IMG/VR virus record: IMGVR_UViG_3300045988_181512
Location: 1-7,760 of that record
Direction: 5' to 3' (one strand)
Source of the DNA: a virus
DNA length: 7,760 nt
Below the pieces are notes generated by a model. The model did not search any database. It was not told the origin of the DNA and saw only the letters and a list, made by a program, of their open reading frames with translations. The position numbers and the translations under genes were made by a program. Shown here piece after piece: positions 1-7,760 of this stretch (positions are counted from its first letter, which is position 1; each line of letters opens with the position of its first letter).

Positions 1-49
1 ACGAGATGTAGCTCCGTCTCGTGGGCTCGGAGATGTGTATAAGAGACAG
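1..49 (+). other. Illumina Nextera i7-side adapter remnant (non-biological)
   Basis: Read directly. 1-7 ACGAGAT is the 3' end of the P7 primer (...GGCATACGAGAT). 8-15 GTAGCTCC fills the 8-nt index slot; its reverse complement GGAGCTAC is, from memory, Nextera index N718. 16-30 is GTCTCGTGGGCTCGG. 31-49 AGATGTGTATAAGAGACAG is the 19-bp Tn5 mosaic end. Insert sequence begins at 50. Confidence 0.95.
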
Positions 50-145
50 ATAGGCGCTGTGCTCCTCGTTCTTATTAAAGTGTTGTGCTATATTTATTAT
101 TTGTATATTCTTTTTACTATTTTATATTATTATAGCACATACCTG

Positions 146-159
146 CGCCCGAAAGGGCG
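146..159 (+). promoter_or_regulatory. GC stem-loop CGCCC-GAAA-GGGCG
   Basis: There are 5 G:C pairs (146-150 with 155-159) closing a GAAA tetraloop (151-154). An alternative pairing is CCGAA (149-153) with TTCGG (166-170). It sits on the coding strand, presumed to be the virion strand, of an ssDNA phage. The structure is seen; the function is unknown. Mirror copy at 7602-7615. Confidence 0.5.
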
Positions 160-199
160 GAACGGTTCGGCATCGCTGCCCCTTAGTTCATTTCATTGG

Positions 200-232
200 C
201 AAAGCCTATTTAATTTTTCCCGGAGGGCTTTG
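200..232 (+). promoter_or_regulatory. Second stem-loop, 7-bp stem CAAAGCC/GGCTTTG with 19-nt loop
   Basis: 200-206 CAAAGCC pairs with 226-232 GGCTTTG. No uninterrupted T-run follows immediately, so it is not a canonical intrinsic terminator. Mirror copy at 7529-7561. Confidence 0.35.
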
Positions 233-372
233 AATTTACCTTATTCAAAGCTCTTATCCCTTGTCTTTCTTTTGAAAAATTACACTTACTCCAAAAAAAA
301 CATCATTTTATTTGGTTATTATGATTTTTATTTCTATCATTGCAGTGTTGTTTAACTGATATTTGTTTTATT

Positions 373-579
373 ATGAAAGTTACTCCTCAACAATGGATTG
401 AAATTGTAAAATTAATTTCAACTTTTATTATTGGTGTTATCACCACTTTGTTTGTACAGTCTTGTACTGTTTCTATGTCTATTTTAAAGAACAATCAAAA
501 CTCGACGCAGAAAACTGAACAGACTTCTACGTCGTCTATTGATTCTACTAAAATTAATATTAATCCTAAAAATTTTTAA
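373..579 (+). CDS. Small membrane protein, 68 aa (hypothetical; single N-terminal hydrophobic helix)
   Basis: ATG at 373 is preferred over the track's upstream TTG at 340; stop TAA is at 577-579. Sequence: MKVTPQQWIEIVKLISTFIIGVITTLFVQSCTVSMSILKNNQNSTQKTEQTSTSSIDSTKININPKNF. A hydrophobic segment (roughly W8-V29) is followed by Q-S-C and a polar S/T/N/Q/K-rich tail. It is on the same strand as Rep and capsid, with a 3-nt gap to the next ATG. No homolog recognised. Confidence 0.55.
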   Translation: MKVTPQQWIEIVKLISTFIIGVITTLFVQSCTVSMSILKNNQNSTQKTEQTSTSSIDSTKININPKNF

Positions 580-582
580 GTT

Positions 583-732
583 ATGGAAATGTATTTGATT
601 TCTTATCAGAAGCAAGGTTCTACCCCTGTTGTGTATGTTGCTAATGAGTCTACTCTTATGGCTACTGTTAACCAGGCTTTAAAAGAGTCTGAAGGTTCGC
701 CTGTATTGGTTTCATCCGCTAAGACTATTTGA
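583..732 (+). CDS. Hypothetical 49-aa protein (below the ORF-track length cutoff)
   Basis: Hand translation from ATG 583 to TGA 730-732 gives MEMYLISYQKQGSTPVVYVANESTLMATVNQALKESEGSPVLVSSAKTI. It exactly fills the gap between the 68-aa ORF (3-nt spacer) and the Rep ATG at 735 (2-nt spacer), on the same strand and with similar T-ending codon usage. No homolog recognised. Confidence 0.45.
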   Translation: MEMYLISYQKQGSTPVVYVANESTLMATVNQALKESEGSPVLVSSAKTI

Positions 733-734
733 TT

Positions 735-2405
735 ATGACAGAGAAAGAACGGGAAAAATATTTAGCTACAGAGTGTTTTCATCCTCGAAAGGTGACTAAT
801 AGATACACTCATGAAACTTTGTTTGTTCGTTGTGGTACATGTCCTTCATGTCTTGTTCATCGTTCTAATATCCAATGTGCTTTAATATCTAACATGTCGT
901 CTCATTTTAAGTATGCCTACTTTTTTACGCTTACTTATTCTGATGAGTTTGTCCCTCGTGTGTCTTTTGAAGTTGTAGAAAGGTGTGATGCTGAAAGTGA
1001 GATAGATGCTTATATGTCCGATTCTGACCCTAGACATTTGCCCTACGATGATTCTAAATATCAAATAGCAGCTACTTATTTACCCCGTTCTGGCTGTTTT
1101 CGCGTTCACGACTCCGGTCGTGTTCGCGATTTTTCAGAAACAGAGTCTTCTTATCAGTTTCTTCATACTTTTTCTGGTAAGGAAATACGTGATTTGTTGG
1201 TAGCTTCTAACGGTCGTTATGATTTTGTACGCAAATGTGTTGTTTTCCCTTCTATTGATGAATGTCGTAATGAGGTTTTTGTTTTGAATCCTTATGATCA
1301 GAATTTGTTTTTTAAACGTTTACGTAAATTGATTGCAAAGAAATACGATGAAAAAATATGTTACTACCTTGTATCAGAGTATGGTGGCCGGACATATCGT
1401 CCGCATTGGCACGGTATATTATTCTTTAACTTGGACGAACTCACCTCGTCTATATGTGAGTTGGTATCTAAGAGTTGGAGCTACGGTCTTACAGATTGTT
1501 CACTGTCGAGAGGTTCCGCTGCTGGTTATGTTGCGTCGTATATTAATAGTTTTGTCGATTTACCAGATTTTTTTAACCGACACAAAGAAATTAAGCCTAG
1601 ATCCTACCACTCCAAAGGACTTTCGGTTAATAGCCTCTTTTGTCAATCGTCCGACATTTCAGAAGTACAGTCAGTTGCCTCTTCATGTATTGATGGATTT
1701 AGTGTCCCGATTAATGGTGAGTATGTCACAGTCAAACCTTCACGGTCGTATGAACGTATGCTATTCCCCCGAATCTCTGACCCTGTTTTTGCGAATCCAT
1801 ACGGCTGTGTTGACTTATTTTTCGGTGCGTTCACAGCATCCAATAGGCTCGTACGTGACGGATATATATCAATAGATGAGAATCTTTCTGTTTGGCAGCT
1901 TTCTAGGCGTTATGCGGAGTATTATTACGGTGTTCGTGCTGGTTATCACAATGTTTCTTATTATGATTCTTTAATTTTTAAGTTTATCCGTTTGGAAACT
2001 GACCAGATTGATTCTGACTCTGTTACTGGTAAGATTTATAGGTTTTTTTCTGCTGTTAATCGTACTTTTCGTTTTTGGAATCTTGATAGATATGTTTTAT
2101 CCCATGATTTAAAGAAGTCTTTACTCAAATTGTTTACTGTTTCTTTTGATTATTGGTCTAGAAAGGAATTGAGATATATTAATGATTATTATGATTATCT
2201 TTCTGTTCATCCTGAATCCCAGGCTTTTTTAAGTTCAAGGACTATTAATTTCTCTTGTCCTCTTAAAGATGATAAGCTTTTTTGGCGTGATTTAAATTCT
2301 ACCTTGTCCTCTTTGAAAAAATCTGTTTTGGAACGGATTTTTCAGAAAGTTAAACATAAGAATTATAATGATATATCAGGTTTATTGTTTAATTTAAATT
2401 TTTAG
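735..2405 (+). CDS. VP4: Microviridae replication initiation protein (HUH rolling-circle endonuclease, VP4 / gpA-like), 556 aa from ATG 735
   Basis: The track ORF 729-2405 starts at TTG; the in-frame ATG at 735 is preferred. Stop TAG is at 2403-2405. Motifs read in the translation: a Cys cluster C-G-T-C-P-S-C (831-851); RCR motif 1 FFTLTY (921-938); the HUH motif RPHWHGILFF (1398-1427, with H-W-H at 1404-1412); and the two-tyrosine motif AAGYVASYINS (Y at 1527-1529 and 1539-1541, Y-x-x-x-Y). The last resembles phiX174 gpA YVAKYVNK. Confidence 0.9.
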   Translation: MTEKEREKYLATECFHPRKVTNRYTHETLFVRCGTCPSCLVHRSNIQCALISNMSSHFKYAYFFTLTYSDEFVPRVSFEVVERCDAESEIDAYMSDSDPRHLPYDDSKYQIAATYLPRSGCFRVHDSGRVRDFSETESSYQFLHTFSGKEIRDLLVASNGRYDFVRKCVVFPSIDECRNEVFVLNPYDQNLFFKRLRKLIAKKYDEKICYYLVSEYGGRTYRPHWHGILFFNLDELTSSICELVSKSWSYGLTDCSLSRGSAAGYVASYINSFVDLPDFFNRHKEIKPRSYHSKGLSVNSLFCQSSDISEVQSVASSCIDGFSVPINGEYVTVKPSRSYERMLFPRISDPVFANPYGCVDLFFGAFTASNRLVRDGYISIDENLSVWQLSRRYAEYYYGVRAGYHNVSYYDSLIFKFIRLETDQIDSDSVTGKIYRFFSAVNRTFRFWNLDRYVLSHDLKKSLLKLFTVSFDYWSRKELRYINDYYDYLSVHPESQAFLSSRTINFSCPLKDDKLFWRDLNSTLSSLKKSVLERIFQKVKHKNYNDISGLLFNLNF

Positions 2406-2408
2406 TTT

Positions 2409-3842
2409 ATGGCTTATTTTACAGGTCTTAAACAGCTCCAGAATCATCCGCATCGTTCTGGTTTTGATATTGGAGCTAAAAATGTGTTTTCTGCTAAGTG
2501 TGGTGAGCTTCTTCCTATCTTTTGGGATTTAGGCTTGCCCGGTTGTACTTACGACATTAGTTTGCAGTATTTTACTCGTACTCGTCCTGTGCAGACTGCT
2601 GCTTATACTCGTGTTCGTGAGTATTTTGATTTTTATGCTGTTCCTGTTGATTTGATTTGGAAATCTTTCGATGCTTCTGTTATTCAAATGGGTGAAATTG
2701 CTCCGGTTCAATCTAAGGACTTATTAAATGCTCTTACTGTTAAAGGTGATTTACCTTGGTGTAATCTATCTGATTTAGGTTGGTCTACATTTTTGTCGTC
2801 TGGTTCATTTAGTACTGGTACTTCTCCTTCTGTCTCCTCTAGTTATGCTAATATTTTCGGATATAATCGTGGTGATGTTAATTACAAGTTGCTTCACATG
2901 CTTAATTACGGTAATATTATTCCGACTTCTCCATCGTTGTCTATTGGTGGCGCTTCTTATCGTTGGTGGAATATGAGCGCTCCTTTGGATGAGTCTCCTC
3001 AAACTTATTCCCAGCTATTCAATTATAATTTAGCTGTAAATATCTTGCCTCTTGCTGCTTATCAGAAAATTTATCAAGATTTTTTCCGCTGGTCGCAATG
3101 GGAAAATGCAGATCCTACTTCTTATAATTTTGATTGGTATATTGGTTCTGGTAATATTTTTGGTACGAGTATTTCTACTTCTATTGGAATTAATAACGAT
3201 TATTGGAAACGTGATAATCTCTTTTCTCTTCGTTATTGTAACTGGAATAAGGATTTGTTCATGGGAATTCTTCCCAATTCCCAGTTTGGAGATATTGCTG
3301 TTGTAGATGTTTCTGGTCGTACTGATTCTACTCCTGTTCGTCTTGGTCCTTCTGGTTTAACTGTTCAAAATTATGCGTCGGTTGGATCGAATTCTTCTTT
3401 TTTAGTGAAGCTTTCTTCTGCTCCTTCTTCTCCTATTCCTGCTGGTTCCAATTTTTTTGTTAATAATTCATCGGTTTCTTCTTCGTTTAATATTCTTGCT
3501 CTTCGTCAAGCAGAAGCTTTGCAGAAATATCGTGAAATTACCCAGTCTGTTGATACTAATTATCGTGACCAGATTAAGGCACATTTTGGTGTGAATGTCC
3601 CTGCTTCTGATTCTCACATGGCACAGTATATTGGTGGAATTGCTCGTAATCTTGACATTTCAGAGGTTGTAAATAACAACTTGCAAGGAGATGGTGAAGC
3701 CGTTATTTATGGTAAAGGTGTTGGTACCGGAACTGGTTCTATGCGTTATTCTACTGGTTCTAAATATTGTATTTTGATGTGTATTTATCACGCTATGCCT
3801 CTTTTGGATTACAATATCTCTGGCCAAACAGCTTATTATTAA
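2409..3842 (+). CDS. VP1: Microviridae major capsid protein (VP1 / F-like), 5' part; authentic only to 3827, terminal TAYY-stop is created by the chimeric junction
   Basis: ATG is at 2409, 3 nt after the Rep stop. The N-terminal block RSGFDIGAKNVFSAKCGELLPIFWDLGLPGCTYDISLQYFTRTRPVQTAAYTRVREYFDFYAVPVDLIW matches the conserved microvirus capsid N-terminus as I recall it (GEL-P, LPG, FTRT-P, EY-D-Y-VP). Codon usage is strongly NNT. Identity with the - copy ends at codon 473 (3827). Confidence 0.85.
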   Translation: MAYFTGLKQLQNHPHRSGFDIGAKNVFSAKCGELLPIFWDLGLPGCTYDISLQYFTRTRPVQTAAYTRVREYFDFYAVPVDLIWKSFDASVIQMGEIAPVQSKDLLNALTVKGDLPWCNLSDLGWSTFLSSGSFSTGTSPSVSSSYANIFGYNRGDVNYKLLHMLNYGNIIPTSPSLSIGGASYRWWNMSAPLDESPQTYSQLFNYNLAVNILPLAAYQKIYQDFFRWSQWENADPTSYNFDWYIGSGNIFGTSISTSIGINNDYWKRDNLFSLRYCNWNKDLFMGILPNSQFGDIAVVDVSGRTDSTPVRLGPSGLTVQNYASVGSNSSFLVKLSSAPSSPIPAGSNFFVNNSSVSSSFNILALRQAEALQKYREITQSVDTNYRDQIKAHFGVNVPASDSHMAQYIGGIARNLDISEVVNNNLQGDGEAVIYGKGVGTGTGSMRYSTGSKYCILMCIYHAMPLLDYNISGQTAYY

Positions 3843-5352
3843 ATAACTGAACAACAGGAACGGACTCCATACCAATATTATCAAATTCAGGAATAGGTAA
3901 ATCCTCAACAGAAGTACAAAGTAATTGCGCTGGTTGGCCAGAGATATTGTAATCCAAAAGAGGCATAGCGTGATAAATACACATCAAAATACAATATTTA
4001 GAACCAGTAGAATAACGCATAGAACCAGTTCCGGTACCAACACCTTTACCATAAATAACGGCTTCACCATCTCCTTGCAAGTTGTTATTTACAACCTCTG
4101 AAATGTCAAGATTACGAGCAATTCCACCAATATACTGTGCCATGTGAGAATCAGAAGCAGGGACATTCACACCAAAATGTGCCTTAATCTGGTCACGATA
4201 ATTAGTATCAACAGACTGGGTAATTTCACGATATTTCTGCAAAGCTTCTGCTTGACGAAGAGCAAGAATATTAAACGAAGAAGAAACCGATGAATTATTA
4301 ACAAAAAAATTGGAACCAGCAGGAATAGGAGAAGAAGGAGCAGAAGAAAGCTTCACTAAAAAAGAAGAATTCGATCCAACCGACGCATAATTTTGAACAG
4401 TTAAACCAGAAGGACCAAGACGAACAGGAGTAGAATCAGTACGACCAGAAACATCTACAACAGCAATATCTCCAAACTGGGAATTGGGAAGAATTCCCAT
4501 GAACAAATCCTTATTCCAGTTACAATAACGAAGAGAAAAGAGATTATCACGTTTCCAATAATCGTTATTAATTCCAATAGAAGTAGAAATACTCGTACCA
4601 AAAATATTACCAGAACCAATATACCAATCAAAATTATAAGAAGTAGGATCTGCATTTTCCCATTGCGACCAGCGGAAAAAATCTTGATAAATTTTCTGAT
4701 AAGCAGCAAGAGGCAAGATATTTACAGCTAAATTATAATTGAATAGCTGGGAATAAGTTTGAGGAGACTCATCCAAAGGAGCGCTCATATTCCACCAACG
4801 ATAAGAAGCGCCACCAATAGACAACGATGGAGAAGTCGGAATAATATTACCGTAATTAAGCATGTGAAGCAACTTGTAATTAACATCACCACGATTATAT
4901 CCGAAAATATTAGCATAACTAGAGGAGACAGAAGGAGAAGTACCAGTACTAAATGAACCAGACGACAAAAATGTAGACCAACCTAAATCAGATAGATTAC
5001 ACCAAGGTAAATCACCTTTAACAGTAAGAGCATTTAATAAGTCCTTAGATTGAACCGGAGCAATTTCACCCATTTGAATAACAGAAGCATCGAAAGATTT
5101 CCAAATCAAATCAACAGGAACAGCATAAAAATCAAAATACTCACGAACACGAGTATAAGCAGCAGTCTGCACAGGACGAGTACGAGTAAAATACTGCAAA
5201 CTAATGTCGTAAGTACAACCGGGCAAGCCTAAATCCCAAAAGATAGGAAGAAGCTCACCACACTTAGCAGAAAACACATTTTTAGCTCCAATATCAAAAC
5301 CAGAACGATGCGGATGATTCTGGAGCTGTTTAAGACCTGTAAAATAAGCCAT
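3793..5352 (-). CDS. VP1: Major capsid protein, mirror copy and longer version (codons 1-508 authentic, 3829-5352); last ~11 codons (F-GQRYCNPKEA-stop) read into the opposite arm and are artefactual; true C-terminus missing
   Basis: Identical to the + copy for 473 aa, then continues PAQLLCTSVEDLPIPEFDNIGMESVPVVQLFNNKL through the spacer. Codon 509 straddles 3828/3827. The segment LPIPEFDNIGMESVP resembles the WPEF..LGEQ block that I recall lying well before the C-terminus of other microvirus capsids, so the gene appears truncated. Confidence 0.85.
   Translation of the reverse strand: MAYFTGLKQLQNHPHRSGFDIGAKNVFSAKCGELLPIFWDLGLPGCTYDISLQYFTRTRPVQTAAYTRVREYFDFYAVPVDLIWKSFDASVIQMGEIAPVQSKDLLNALTVKGDLPWCNLSDLGWSTFLSSGSFSTGTSPSVSSSYANIFGYNRGDVNYKLLHMLNYGNIIPTSPSLSIGGASYRWWNMSAPLDESPQTYSQLFNYNLAVNILPLAAYQKIYQDFFRWSQWENADPTSYNFDWYIGSGNIFGTSISTSIGINNDYWKRDNLFSLRYCNWNKDLFMGILPNSQFGDIAVVDVSGRTDSTPVRLGPSGLTVQNYASVGSNSSFLVKLSSAPSSPIPAGSNFFVNNSSVSSSFNILALRQAEALQKYREITQSVDTNYRDQIKAHFGVNVPASDSHMAQYIGGIARNLDISEVVNNNLQGDGEAVIYGKGVGTGTGSMRYSTGSKYCILMCIYHAMPLLDYNISGQPAQLLCTSVEDLPIPEFDNIGMESVPVVQLFNNKLFGQRYCNPKEA
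3828..3933 (-). other. Asymmetric 106-nt spacer between the arms; authentic continuation of the capsid gene on the - strand
   Basis: Mirror symmetry fails at 3828/3933 and again at 3833/3928. On the - strand the spacer extends the capsid ORF by 35 codons (PAQLLCTSVEDLPIPEFDNIGMESVPVVQLFNNKL). On the + strand it is A-rich and terminates the ORF after 4 codons. Confidence 0.8.
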
Positions 5353-5355
5353 AAA

Positions 5356-7026
5356 CTAAAAATTTAAATTAAACAATAAACCTGATATATCATTATAATT
5401 CTTATGTTTAACTTTCTGAAAAATCCGTTCCAAAACAGATTTTTTCAAAGAGGACAAGGTAGAATTTAAATCACGCCAAAAAAGCTTATCATCTTTAAGA
5501 GGACAAGAGAAATTAATAGTCCTTGAACTTAAAAAAGCCTGGGATTCAGGATGAACAGAAAGATAATCATAATAATCATTAATATATCTCAATTCCTTTC
5601 TAGACCAATAATCAAAAGAAACAGTAAACAATTTGAGTAAAGACTTCTTTAAATCATGGGATAAAACATATCTATCAAGATTCCAAAAACGAAAAGTACG
5701 ATTAACAGCAGAAAAAAACCTATAAATCTTACCAGTAACAGAGTCAGAATCAATCTGGTCAGTTTCCAAACGGATAAACTTAAAAATTAAAGAATCATAA
5801 TAAGAAACATTGTGATAACCAGCACGAACACCGTAATAATACTCCGCATAACGCCTAGAAAGCTGCCAAACAGAAAGATTCTCATCTATTGATATATATC
5901 CGTCACGTACGAGCCTATTGGATGCTGTGAACGCACCGAAAAATAAGTCAACACAGCCGTATGGATTCGCAAAAACAGGGTCAGAGATTCGGGGGAATAG
6001 CATACGTTCATACGACCGTGAAGGTTTGACTGTGACATACTCACCATTAATCGGGACACTAAATCCATCAATACATGAAGAGGCAACTGACTGTACTTCT
6101 GAAATGTCGGACGATTGACAAAAGAGGCTATTAACCGAAAGTCCTTTGGAGTGGTAGGATCTAGGCTTAATTTCTTTGTGTCGGTTAAAAAAATCTGGTA
6201 AATCGACAAAACTATTAATATACGACGCAACATAACCAGCAGCGGAACCTCTCGACAGTGAACAATCTGTAAGACCGTAGCTCCAACTCTTAGATACCAA
6301 CTCACATATAGACGAGGTGAGTTCGTCCAAGTTAAAGAATAATATACCGTGCCAATGCGGACGATATGTCCGGCCACCATACTCTGATACAAGGTAGTAA
6401 CATATTTTTTCATCGTATTTCTTTGCAATCAATTTACGTAAACGTTTAAAAAACAAATTCTGATCATAAGGATTCAAAACAAAAACCTCATTACGACATT
6501 CATCAATAGAAGGGAAAACAACACATTTGCGTACAAAATCATAACGACCGTTAGAAGCTACCAACAAATCACGTATTTCCTTACCAGAAAAAGTATGAAG
6601 AAACTGATAAGAAGACTCTGTTTCTGAAAAATCGCGAACACGACCGGAGTCGTGAACGCGAAAACAGCCAGAACGGGGTAAATAAGTAGCTGCTATTTGA
6701 TATTTAGAATCATCGTAGGGCAAATGTCTAGGGTCAGAATCGGACATATAAGCATCTATCTCACTTTCAGCATCACACCTTTCTACAACTTCAAAAGACA
6801 CACGAGGGACAAACTCATCAGAATAAGTAAGCGTAAAAAAGTAGGCATACTTAAAATGAGACGACATGTTAGATATTAAAGCACATTGGATATTAGAACG
6901 ATGAACAAGACATGAAGGACATGTACCACAACGAACAAACAAAGTTTCATGAGTGTATCTATTAGTCACCTTTCGAGGATGAAAACACTCTGTAGCTAAA
7001 TATTTTTCCCGTTCTTTCTCTGTCAT
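5356..7026 (-). CDS. VP4: Replication initiation protein, exact mirror duplicate of 735-2405 (artefactual second copy)
   Basis: Translation is identical to the + copy (track pair 729-2405 / 5356-7032). Confidence 0.9.
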   Translation of the reverse strand: MTEKEREKYLATECFHPRKVTNRYTHETLFVRCGTCPSCLVHRSNIQCALISNMSSHFKYAYFFTLTYSDEFVPRVSFEVVERCDAESEIDAYMSDSDPRHLPYDDSKYQIAATYLPRSGCFRVHDSGRVRDFSETESSYQFLHTFSGKEIRDLLVASNGRYDFVRKCVVFPSIDECRNEVFVLNPYDQNLFFKRLRKLIAKKYDEKICYYLVSEYGGRTYRPHWHGILFFNLDELTSSICELVSKSWSYGLTDCSLSRGSAAGYVASYINSFVDLPDFFNRHKEIKPRSYHSKGLSVNSLFCQSSDISEVQSVASSCIDGFSVPINGEYVTVKPSRSYERMLFPRISDPVFANPYGCVDLFFGAFTASNRLVRDGYISIDENLSVWQLSRRYAEYYYGVRAGYHNVSYYDSLIFKFIRLETDQIDSDSVTGKIYRFFSAVNRTFRFWNLDRYVLSHDLKKSLLKLFTVSFDYWSRKELRYINDYYDYLSVHPESQAFLSSRTINFSCPLKDDKLFWRDLNSTLSSLKKSVLERIFQKVKHKNYNDISGLLFNLNF

Positions 7027-7028
7027 AA

Positions 7029-7178
7029 TCAAATAGTCTTAGCGGATGAAACCAATACAGGCGAACCTTCAGACTCTTTTAAAGCCTGGTTAACAGTAGC
7101 CATAAGAGTAGACTCATTAGCAACATACACAACAGGGGTAGAACCTTGCTTCTGATAAGAAATCAAATACATTTCCAT
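7029..7178 (-). CDS. Hypothetical 49-aa protein, mirror duplicate of 583-732
   Basis: 7161-7180 is the exact reverse complement of 581-600. Same ORF by symmetry. Confidence 0.45.
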   Translation of the reverse strand: MEMYLISYQKQGSTPVVYVANESTLMATVNQALKESEGSPVLVSSAKTI

Positions 7179-7181
7179 AAC

Positions 7182-7388
7182 TTAAAAATTTTTAGGATTA
7201 ATATTAATTTTAGTAGAATCAATAGACGACGTAGAAGTCTGTTCAGTTTTCTGCGTCGAGTTTTGATTGTTCTTTAAAATAGACATAGAAACAGTACAAG
7301 ACTGTACAAACAAAGTGGTGATAACACCAATAATAAAAGTTGAAATTAATTTTACAATTTCAATCCATTGTTGAGGAGTAACTTTCAT
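7182..7388 (-). CDS. Small membrane protein 68 aa, mirror duplicate of 373-579
   Basis: Track pair 340-579 / 7182-7421 has identical translations. The ATG start maps to 7386-7388. Confidence 0.55.
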   Translation of the reverse strand: MKVTPQQWIEIVKLISTFIIGVITTLFVQSCTVSMSILKNNQNSTQKTEQTSTSSIDSTKININPKNF

Positions 7389-7711
7389 AATAAAACAAAT
7401 ATCAGTTAAACAACACTGCAATGATAGAAATAAAAATCATAATAACCAAATAAAATGATGTTTTTTTTGGAGTAAGTGTAATTTTTCAAAAGAAAGACAA
7501 GGGATAAGAGCTTTGAATAAGGTAAATTCAAAGCCCTCCGGGAAAAATTAAATAGGCTTTGCCAATGAAATGAACTAAGGGGCAGCGATGCCGAACCGTT
7601 CCGCCCTTTCGGGCGCAGGTATGTGCTATAATAATATAAAATAGTAAAAAGAATATACAAATAATAAATATAGCACAACACTTTAATAAGAACGAGGAGC
7701 ACAGCGCCTAT
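7389..7711 (-). promoter_or_regulatory. Mirror duplicate of the AT-rich non-coding region with hairpin island
   Basis: Reverse complement of 50-372. The hairpins are mirrored at 7602-7615 and 7529-7561. Confidence 0.5.
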
Positions 7712-7760
7712 CTGTCTCTTATACACATCTCCGAGCCCACGAGACGGAGCTACATCTCGT
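7712..7760 (-). other. Same Nextera i7-side adapter, reverse complement (read-through form)
   Basis: 7712-7760 reads CTGTCTCTTATACACATCT CCGAGCCCACGAGAC GGAGCTAC ATCTCGT. This is the classic Nextera read-through/trimming string followed by the index and the start of P7. It is the exact reverse complement of 1-49. Confidence 0.95.

Follow-up and report, generated by a model that had tools for sequence, protein, structure and literature searches.

The window examined here, a 7,760-nt stretch comprising positions 1 to 7,760 of IMG/VR record IMGVR_UViG_3300045988_181512, reads as a viral sequence followed by its own reverse complement, which raises the question of whether it represents a real head-to-head molecule or a product of library preparation and assembly. 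A preliminary description had taken it for a single ~3.9-kb microvirus segment turned into an inverted chimera or an assembly artefact, and this interpretation holds, as related genomes carry the segment in a single copy, on one strand, and read through the junction. The window is very probably an artefactual fold-back contig that arose when the assembler followed an inverted template-switch read back along low-coverage sequence.

Geometry of the fold-back

When the window was compared base by base with its reverse complement, 66 positions were mismatched, every one in 3828-3933. Outside this region, base x is complementary to base 7761-x (1-3827 versus 3934-7760) with 0 mismatches in 3827 pairs, exactly as had been described. 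A mismatch-tolerant repeat search returned arms at 1-3832 and 3929-7760 separated by a spacer of 96 nt, a figure obtained by tolerating the mismatch between 3828 and 3933 and adding the CAGC/GCTG pairing of 3829-3832 with 3929-3932. A perfect inverted repeat of 3.8 kb cannot have originated by chance. The earlier remarks on base composition and coding content were also borne out: the left half is T-rich (T 1532, A 953), the right half is its mirror image, and the mirrored ORFs are identical between the arms.

The centre had been described as a tiny palindromic breakpoint; it is instead a 106-nt, non-palindromic, single-copy loop (3828-3933) between the arms, and TGGCCA at 3821-3826 is an incidental 6-nt palindrome within the arm. 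The overall layout is adapter, arm, 106-nt loop, inverted arm and inverted adapter (Table 1). Taken as a whole, the contig is linear and palindromic over 7.76 kb, its second half repeating the first as an exact reverse complement, genes included, and is not a small one-strand circle of about 4.4-6.8 kb carrying each gene once. Each arm alone fits the one-strand, single-copy pattern of a microvirus.

Table 1. Features of the 7,760-nt window
Feature	Coordinates	Strand	Basis or remarks
Adapter, reverse-complement orientation	1..49	+	ACGAGAT (1-7) + GTAGCTCC (8-15) + GTCTCGTGGGCTCGGAGATGTGTATAAGAGACAG (16-49), read directly
Left arm, virion-sense microvirus segment	50..3823	+	Matches L007 4746..6532, then 1..~2017; 0 mismatches to right arm
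3' arm only of conserved 22-bp intergenic hairpin, then T-run (terminator-like)	50..69	+	Fold; alignment with 3 compensatory pairs
Small ORF, 68 aa, hydrophobic segment	373..579	+	Mirror 7182-7388 (-)
Small ORF, 49 aa	583..732	+	Mirror 7029-7178 (-); 49-aa ORF at same place in L007
Rep, replication initiator, 556 aa	735..2405	+	Mirror 5356-7026 (-)
Major capsid, left copy, 477 aa	2409..3842	+	Pfam PF02305
False join, CCAA (TTGG on native strand), 4-nt microhomology	3824..3827		Both window strands aligned with L007 and L092
Single-copy loop, native capsid codons 474-508, contiguous with right arm	3828..3933	-	Continues the ORF with ...TSVEDLPIPEFDNIGMESVPVVQLFNNKLFG
Major capsid, right copy, 519 aa	3793..5352	-	phrog_514
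Right arm, same segment as reverse complement	3934..7711	-	Strand self-comparison and repeat search
Adapter as on read-through	7712..7760	+	CTGTCTCTTATACACATCTCCGAGCCCACGAGAC + GGAGCTAC + ATCTCGT; reverse complement of 1-49

The native segment and its complete relatives

The genes of each arm are those of a gut microvirus: two small ORFs, Rep and an incomplete gene for an F-type capsid. Rep was recognized by Pfam PF23343 (E = 3.9e-13) and by the replication initiation protein family phrog_942 (E = 3.3e-32), and the F-type capsid by PF02305 (E about 1e-18) and phrog_514 (E = 1.4e-43, profile positions 21-411 of 531); an F-type capsid and a rolling-circle Rep mark the stretch as a Microviridae segment. 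Over residues 1-510, the capsid is 91% identical to its nearest full-length homologue (P0001, 620 aa). The real object is a stretch of 3,884 nt, given in native order by the reverse complement of 3828-7711, which starts at the intergenic hairpin, spans both small ORFs and Rep, and breaks off at codon 510 of a capsid gene of ~620 codons. It is about 60% of a circular ssDNA gut microvirus of about 6.5 kb.

Complete relatives are circles of 6.2-6.8 kb in which every gene occurs once and all genes lie on one strand. In particular, Dulem virus 245 (PP511488), bajarodmic virus 429 (PQ006546) and L007 (Logan contig SRR15558217_1601, with a 30-nt terminal overlap) share with the window the gene set and order (small ORFs, Rep, capsid) and the conserved intergenic hairpin. 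Unlike the window, these three are circular (6.2-6.5 kb), encode each gene a single time and on one strand, and include the scaffold gene, the pilot gene and the C-terminus of the capsid, all of which the window lacks. L007 holds the arm once, and the left arm aligns with it at 94.6% and 89.4% nucleotide identity; a 68-aa ORF also occupies the same place in L007. The 7.7-kb size, the doubled gene count and the convergent capsid genes of the window are spurious, as the preliminary description had maintained. Two shorter capsids (P0039 and P0040, 573 and 577 aa), which were considered as possible chimeras, turned out to be natural variants that carry deletions in a variable loop.

The native continuation of the window's exact strain was not found by three kinds of look-up: an exact 37-mer of the loop had no match in IMG/VR, in the metagenome collection, a 29-mer of the junction region matched nothing but a sister strain (L092), and exact-protein searches with the 477-, 519- and 556-aa products gave no match. 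Other assemblies of the virus were reached via the two small ORFs only, the 68-aa protein being identical in three of them.

The false join within the capsid gene

The two capsid copies differ in how they end. The left copy is genuine through 3827, enters the loop in the wrong orientation and stops after 4 junk codons, its homology ceasing at ...NISGQ (alignment A1). The right copy comprises native residues 1-510 of about 620, followed by 9 junk codons (QRYCNPKEA, then a stop) contributed by the turned-back arm. On the minus strand, the loop extends the capsid ORF at 91% identity to P0001 through residue 510, after which the two diverge. Since the loop continues the ORF on this strand only, the join at 3933/3934 is native and that at 3823-3828 is false.

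Alignment with relatives shows what was replaced. Both L007 and L092 read straight through the junction position: after ...AAGCTGTTTGG, they continue with TTCTTCT (...GCTGTTTGG|TTCTTC), whereas the window continues from ...AAGCTGTTTGG with CCAGAGATATTG (...GCTGTTTGG|CCAGAG), back into the reversed arm. The junction is absent from the native genomes of these relatives; on the minus strand, the window is native as far as 3828, where it jumps 106 nt upstream and follows the arm in reverse. TTGG is common to the relatives' native continuation and the turned-back arm, and CCAA together with 3829-3832 forms an 8/9 inverted repeat (CCAACCAGC / GCTGTTTGG). A complementary stretch within the 2-21-nt range is present at the join, as judged from relatives that are 86-89% identical there and not from the window's own strain. 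The idea that Tn5 itself made the junction was discarded, as no mosaic-end sequence lies inside the window.

These details bear on whether the assembler could have fused the sequence with its reverse complement in the absence of chimeric reads. SPAdes whole-contig palindromes have been reported as likely assembly errors (PMC9455707), and the untrimmed adapters suggest a minimal-QC pipeline. However, the join is not end-to-end, as the path turns back into the arm 106 nt short of where native sequence ends, and the 4 nt of perfect complementarity (8/9) in relatives fall far under any usual k. A graph with k >= 21 cannot create the join without a read containing it, because the perfect match is only 4 nt (or 8/9); moreover, a native inverted repeat of at least 21 nt would have to displace the conserved capsid residues ...LFGSSVVKAGSILGYN. 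A purely computational error is accordingly very improbable.

It appears that at least one sequenced library molecule bore the inverted junction. A growing strand ending in ...GCTGTTTGG-3' may have released its template and re-annealed to CCAACCAGC, which lies about 100 nt upstream and offers 4-9 nt of complementarity. The partner would have been a same-sense strand, either the growing strand itself or a sister copy, from which extension would have proceeded backward. For the polymerase step, the likeliest candidates lie in a low-input Nextera XT protocol, namely its PCR or gap-fill. With presumably low coverage of the virus, untrimmed adapters and no competing native path past the junction, the assembler would then have crossed the junction and returned on the reverse complement of the same edge to the adapter-bearing read end from which it had started.

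Adapters and the nature of position 50

The window begins and ends with synthetic sequence, which we take to be the untrimmed Illumina Nextera i7 adapter (P7 tail ACGAGAT); its 8-nt index GTAGCTCC is presumably N718. Positions 16-49 consist of GTCTCGTGGGCTCGG plus the mosaic end, and a search of the window located the 19-nt Tn5 mosaic end at 31-49 and 7712-7730 only, compared with 0 occurrences expected by chance. The previously noted presence of the same adapter in inverted orientation at both termini is therefore real, but it does not count as independent evidence, because a palindrome automatically yields identical ends. Likewise, zero divergence between the arms and adapter-capped ends are both observed, but they fit several mechanisms alike and, contrary to what had been proposed, do not single one out.

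Position 50 is a Tn5 cut and not a genome end. In another assembly of the same virus (L005), 23 nt more of native sequence lie upstream, followed by that contig's own adapter. A further assembly (L004), which contains no adapter sequence, starts at 50, covers window positions 50-2193 once at 100% identity and stops before the junction. In the window, the adapter is joined at the apex of the 22-bp intergenic hairpin.

The proposed amplification with phi29 polymerase

The preliminary description had attributed the chimera to phi29 template switching during multiple displacement amplification (MDA) of a virome preparation, with assembly propagating the junction. The mechanism is unsupported and must be considered unlikely. 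The identical virus, with the same Tn5 cut at position 50, is present in the assemblies VATT16-1_SAMN05827217_METAG and SAMN05827092, both of which are named as metagenomes of bulk stool. By naming convention, we take the former to be a VatanenT_2016 DIABIMMUNE bulk-stool metagenome; this provenance and the inferred absence of MDA are based on the record name and on sister-paper methods, not on the sample's own metadata. The sister paper of the same group prepared metagenome libraries with Nextera XT from 100-250 pg of DNA, and its library passage does not mention whole-genome amplification (PMC5686520). Moreover, a circular ssDNA phage normally attains very high coverage upon MDA, whereas here the virus was recovered as fragments of 2144, 676 and 572 nt, one of them at a coverage of 3.4. 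A junction of this kind is also found in QINN14-1, a contig whose name refers to a different study.

The anatomy of the junction nevertheless fits published MDA chimeras, being inverted, with 106 nt between the joined sites and microhomology in the 2-21-nt range (PMC1855051). Lasken and Stockwell (2007) described inverted chimeras produced by template switching during MDA, with 2-21 nt of priming homology (PMC1855051), and the window resembles them in its inverted orientation, short distance and few priming bases (4, or 8/9). Those chimeras were seen in reads, whereas that of the window was expanded by the assembler to a whole-contig palindrome, and the indirect evidence for the window points to an unamplified Nextera XT library.

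Inverted and palindromic artefacts have also been reported from ordinary libraries and SPAdes assemblies. Haile et al. (2019) observed inverted strand-split chimeras originating from single-stranded DNA in ordinary ligation libraries (PMC6344851). As in the window, such reads contain both strands of nearby sequence, and short reverse-complementary stretches mediate their formation; they favour single-stranded templates, and microvirus genomes are single-stranded. However, the strand-split mechanism uses end repair by T4 polymerase, and Nextera has no such step before tagmentation; therefore, PCR or gap-fill would be the step responsible in the window. At the level of assembly, SPAdes contigs built from public M. 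bovis read sets included 81 whole-contig palindromes (PMC9455707). These likewise consist of identical sequence plus reverse complement, with mirror genes that inflate gene counts, but they are bacterial and their junctions were left undissected, whereas in the window the junction, the microhomology and the native continuation have been mapped.

Related junctions and the possibility of an in vivo molecule

Five of 92 related contigs (L008, L092, L044, L071 and L018) likewise terminate in short-range inverted junctions, whose jumps span 184-1835 nt and whose overlaps measure 0-17 nt. No further full palindrome was detected among the 91 related loci screened, the only match being a 61-nt inverted repeat in L018, and a second IMG/VR scan, with Rep, yielded no new loci to enlarge the junction sample. 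L008 folds back around a 290-nt loop, and L092 shows the same strain reading through natively. That L008 might instead contain a true inversion was rejected, as the contig enters the reversed arm, and not downstream sequence, after the inverted 290 nt.

L008 breaks 3-8 nt from the capsid breakpoint of the window. On the L007 scale, the window breaks at or after 2127 and L008 at or before 2124, and the partner sites differ, lying 106 nt upstream in the window and 290 nt downstream in L008. Were breakage random, such proximity would be slightly surprising (P about 0.05 for this pair; about 0.15 if any two of the six junctions may coincide). Given the lack of a common breakpoint position and P of about 0.05-0.15, neither a Rep nick site nor a fixed hotspot is supported at the junction, and both were rejected.

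This coincidence is one argument for a real in vivo molecule, either snap-back (copy-back) defective DNA or a replicative intermediate with head-to-head arms, which would have arisen in the host by a strand switch while the double-stranded form was replicating. The junction must also have been physically present in some molecule, and, given that Tn5 requires double-stranded DNA, the reads derive from double-stranded forms. On the other hand, the axis lies inside the essential capsid gene, and the molecule has neither the capsid C-terminus nor a scaffold or pilot gene; the junction is unconserved, L007 and L092 reading through it; the window and L008 break at different nucleotides with different partner sites; and other contigs have comparable inverted tails at positions unrelated to this one. 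We know of no palindromic dimer stage in the rolling-circle replication of Microviridae. An in vivo origin is thus very improbable, and slimmer still is the chance of a snap-back defective DNA for which the region around capsid codon 508 is a preferred strand-switching site, a reading considered because L008 is an independent fold-back from a sister strain that breaks so close by. Sequence alone cannot assign the physical library junction to an in vitro or in vivo origin.

Natural palindromic forms, such as the parvovirus dimer replicative form and snap-back defective genomes, resemble the window in having head-to-head identical arms and a short unique turn-around. They turn at a conserved terminal hairpin axis and retain intact coding capacity, whereas the axis of the window is an unconserved site in the capsid gene and its ends are synthetic adapters; neither a conserved turn-around nor natural termini were found.

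Implications for virus catalogues

The window contig and its two truncated capsid proteins are present in public collections (JGI/IMG, ENA), the latter as hypothetical proteins. Protein clustering is affected, as the 90% cluster representative of these capsids (P0013) also comes from another fold-back contig. Adapter-capped palindromes make genomes look larger and richer in genes than they are, produce spurious convergent gene pairs and could pass for viral genomes with inverted terminal repeats. The palindrome itself carries no biology, and the value of recognizing it lies in data hygiene: with inverted tails in 5 of 92 related contigs, comparison of each contig with its own reverse complement, together with adapter trimming, is worthwhile for catalogues of small ssDNA viruses.

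Structure of the palindrome

As a pattern in the sequence the palindrome is real; as biology it is spurious. When the window was compared base by base with its own reverse complement, all 66 mismatching positions fell within 3828-3933, and segments 1-3827 and 3934-7760 formed an inverted pair with zero mismatches, which confirms the mirror pairing reported in the preliminary description. A repeat search gave longer arms (1-3832 and 3929-7760, with 96 nt between them) because it tolerated the single mismatch 3828/3933 and included the CAGC/GCTG pairing. The T-rich left half of the plus strand (T 1532, A 953), mirrored by the right half, was likewise borne out, as was the presence of one adapter in inverted orientation at both termini. 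Its index is GGAGCTAC; we take the adapter to be an Illumina Nextera i7 adapter comprising 7 nt of P7 and an 8-nt index, presumably N718. A scan of the whole window found no 19-nt mosaic end outside the two end adapters. The adapter-capped ends had been offered as support for a chimera; the adapters are indeed present, but a palindrome necessarily shows the same sequence at both ends, so that they add no independent support.

Features of the window and of related contigs with inverted tails
Feature	Position	Jump	Junction overlap	Description
Adapter	1-49			Reads ACGAGAT-GTAGCTCC-GTCTCGTGGGCTCGGAGATGTGTATAAGAGACAG, as read from the sequence
Hairpin and T-run	Window 50-69 and 7692-7711; L007 4708-4760; L005 26-73			Intergenic, upstream of the small ORFs
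Small ORF	373-579			68 aa, hydrophobic segment; upstream of Rep; in each arm
Small ORF	583-732			49 aa; upstream of Rep; in each arm
Replication initiator (Rep)	Each arm			556 aa; PF23343; phrog_942
F-type major capsid gene	Each arm			PF02305; phrog_514
Adapter	7712-7760			Reverse complement of 1-49, as read from the sequence
Fold-back in L008	2521-2821	290 nt	6 nt (microhomology ATAAGC)	Sister strain; ERZ28621839, QINN14-1_SAMEA2581943; 290-nt loop
Tail of L092	5416-5462	184 nt	9-10 nt	
Tail of L044	7010-7141	about 1835 nt	8-17 nt	
Tail of L071	6446-6503	about 1120 nt	0-1 nt	
Tail of L018	6202-6262	672 nt	6 nt	

False join within the capsid gene

The centre of the window, previously described as a tiny palindromic breakpoint, is a 106-nt non-palindromic, single-copy loop. 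The plus-strand copy of the capsid gene meets a stop four codons into this loop (product 477 aa). The minus-strand copy crosses it as TSVEDLPIPEFDNIGMESVPVVQLFNNKLFG, followed by nine junk codons (product 519 aa), and is 91% identical to the closest full-length capsid, P0001 (620 aa), over residues 1-510, with no identity beyond. Because the capsid ORF crosses the loop only on the minus strand and identity to P0001 ends at residue 510, the loop is native and runs on unbroken from the right arm, which puts the artificial join at 3823-3828. In a DNA alignment with both window strands, where two native relatives read AATAAGCTGTTTGG and then TTCTTCT, the window reads AATAAGCTGTTTGG and then CCAGAGATATTG, the reversed arm. 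The chimeric string at the junction is AAGCTGTTTGGCCAGAGATATTG, whereas a native continuation would contain AAGCTGTTTGGTTC. TTGG is common to the native continuation and the reversed arm (CCAA at 3824-3827); together with the preceding GCTG, it makes up an inverted repeat that matches at 8 of 9 positions (CCAACCAGC / GCTGTTTGG) and whose loop spans about 96 nt.

A purely computational join, made without a chimeric read, is very unlikely, as homology of 4 nt, or of 8 of 9 nt, is far below the usual assembly k-mer, and a longer inverted repeat in the native sequence could exist only at the cost of conserved capsid residues. At least one read therefore carried the junction, and a graph-level error alone is an unlikely origin. 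A snap-back molecule formed in vivo is also very unlikely. The contig very probably derives from an inverted template-switch junction in one or more library molecules, followed back by a low-coverage, adapter-untrimmed assembly. In particular, one or a few molecules would have carried such a junction within the capsid gene, at a site with 4-9 nt of microhomology; assembly at low coverage with untrimmed adapters would then have followed it back along the same edge, leaving the order adapter-arm-loop-arm'-adapter'. Public M. bovis read sets assembled with SPAdes are reported to have given 81 whole-contig palindromes (PMC9455707).

Circular relatives and the left end

The GenBank DNA relatives (Dulem virus 245, bajarodmic virus 429 and MT837631) are circular faecal microviruses of 6.2-6.5 kb, in which the genes for the capsid (about 640 aa), scaffold, pilot, small ORFs and Rep follow one another on one strand throughout. 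The closest relative found, the Logan contig SRR15558217_1601 (L007), is 6,532 nt long and its ends overlap by 30 nt, which makes it a circle of about 6.5 kb. It is 94.6% identical to window positions 50-1836 and, in native orientation, 89.4% identical to 1808-3933; the arm corresponds to L007 4746..6532 and then 1..2127. The window lacks L007 2128-4745, a stretch that covers the final ~110 codons of the capsid gene, the 170-aa scaffold, the 359-aa pilot and an ORF of 73 aa. The two small ORFs upstream of Rep gave no family match in Pfam or PHROGs, and their position and length are kept in L007.

Among related capsids, those of contigs L009-L011 (573-577 aa) lack about 150 nt in the variable surface-loop region relative to L007 1509-1658; chimerism was rejected as the cause in favour of natural variation in this region. 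A 533-aa microvirus capsid fragment (P0046; 86% identical) is entered at NCBI as the Pseudomonas putida hypothetical protein GQL56_27845 on a 1.6-kb contig, probably from a contaminated bacterial assembly.

At the left end, a contig of the same virus from another assembly (L005; ERZ651988) has 23 nt more (CAGCCCTATACAGACGTAGCTGT) before its own adapter, and with them a 22-bp hairpin is whole; a T-run comes after it. Five relatives keep this hairpin, with three compensatory pairs. The window has its 3' arm only because the adapter joined at the hairpin apex. Position 50 is thus a Tn5 cut and not a genome end; the hairpin looks like a terminator and may possibly serve as an origin for complementary-strand synthesis. 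The whole 676-nt L005 contig (NODE_27469) represents one library fragment, flanked on either side by i7 adapters (1-25 and 638-676). These carry a different index (CCTAAGA-), and untrimmed adapters are therefore general in the assembly set.

Provenance and amplification

The 68-aa ORF matched contig VATT16-1_SAMN05827217_METAG-scaffold_1593, which has no adapter sequence, starts exactly at position 50 and is 100% identical to window 50-2193; we take it to be a re-assembly, after trimming, of the same read set. The ORF also matched a 572-nt contig from SAMN05827092. The names QINN14, LIJU14 and VATT16 point to VatanenT_2016, the DIABIMMUNE three-country cohort, of which PRJNA290380 is presumably the accession. 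Another paper describes PRJNA290380 as children from Estonia, Russia and Finland.

The preliminary description ascribed the chimera to template switching during phi29 multiple displacement amplification (MDA), a specific origin that is unlikely. Fragmentary contigs and the L005 coverage tag of 3.4 indicate low coverage of the virus, whereas MDA of circular ssDNA phage usually gives the opposite. In a sister paper, the same group reports preparing Nextera XT libraries from 100-250 pg of stool DNA, in a passage that makes no mention of whole-genome amplification (PMC5686520). The junction anatomy does fit published MDA chimeras, which are inverted and short-range with 2-21-nt priming homology (PMC1855051), but it matches other template-switch or self-priming artefacts equally well, one of which is strand-split reads from single-stranded DNA (PMC6344851).

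Inverted tails in related contigs

All 92 fetched loci were compared pairwise for strand-discordant segments, and five had an inverted tail at the contig end; there was no further full palindrome among the fetched loci, and a further IMG/VR scan added no loci. IMG/VR holds three of the four contigs L092, L044, L071 and L018, the last of which also carries a 61-nt segment that recurs exactly, in inverted orientation, at its positions 369-429. For L008, a true inversion was rejected: the contig has 290 inverted nt and then 11 nt of reversed arm. L092 (OGHY01003899.1) covers the same strain as L008, with 100% identity over 1,937 nt, and reads natively through the break. The window differs from these five contigs solely in that the assembler walked the whole reverse complement.

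On the L007 scale, L008 breaks at or before 2124 and the window at or after 2127; the breakpoints are therefore separated by 3-8 nt and have different partner sites. When the six observed jumps were placed on a 6.5-kb circle by simulation, P was about 0.05 for any of the other five events falling within 8 nt of a window endpoint and about 0.15 for a coincidence between any two of the six. As evidence that strand switching is concentrated near capsid codon 508, the coincidence is weak, and the two breakpoints have no nucleotide in common, which leaves a specific nick site unsupported.

Consequences for databases

In JGI/IMG and ENA, the 477- and 519-aa capsids are listed as hypothetical proteins (the group of P0121, P0122 and P0013); the representative of their 90% cluster, P0013 (508 aa), is itself a truncated product of the L008 fold-back contig. 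Both databases hold the window contig together with its two truncated capsids, and the practical consequence of the finding is database contamination.
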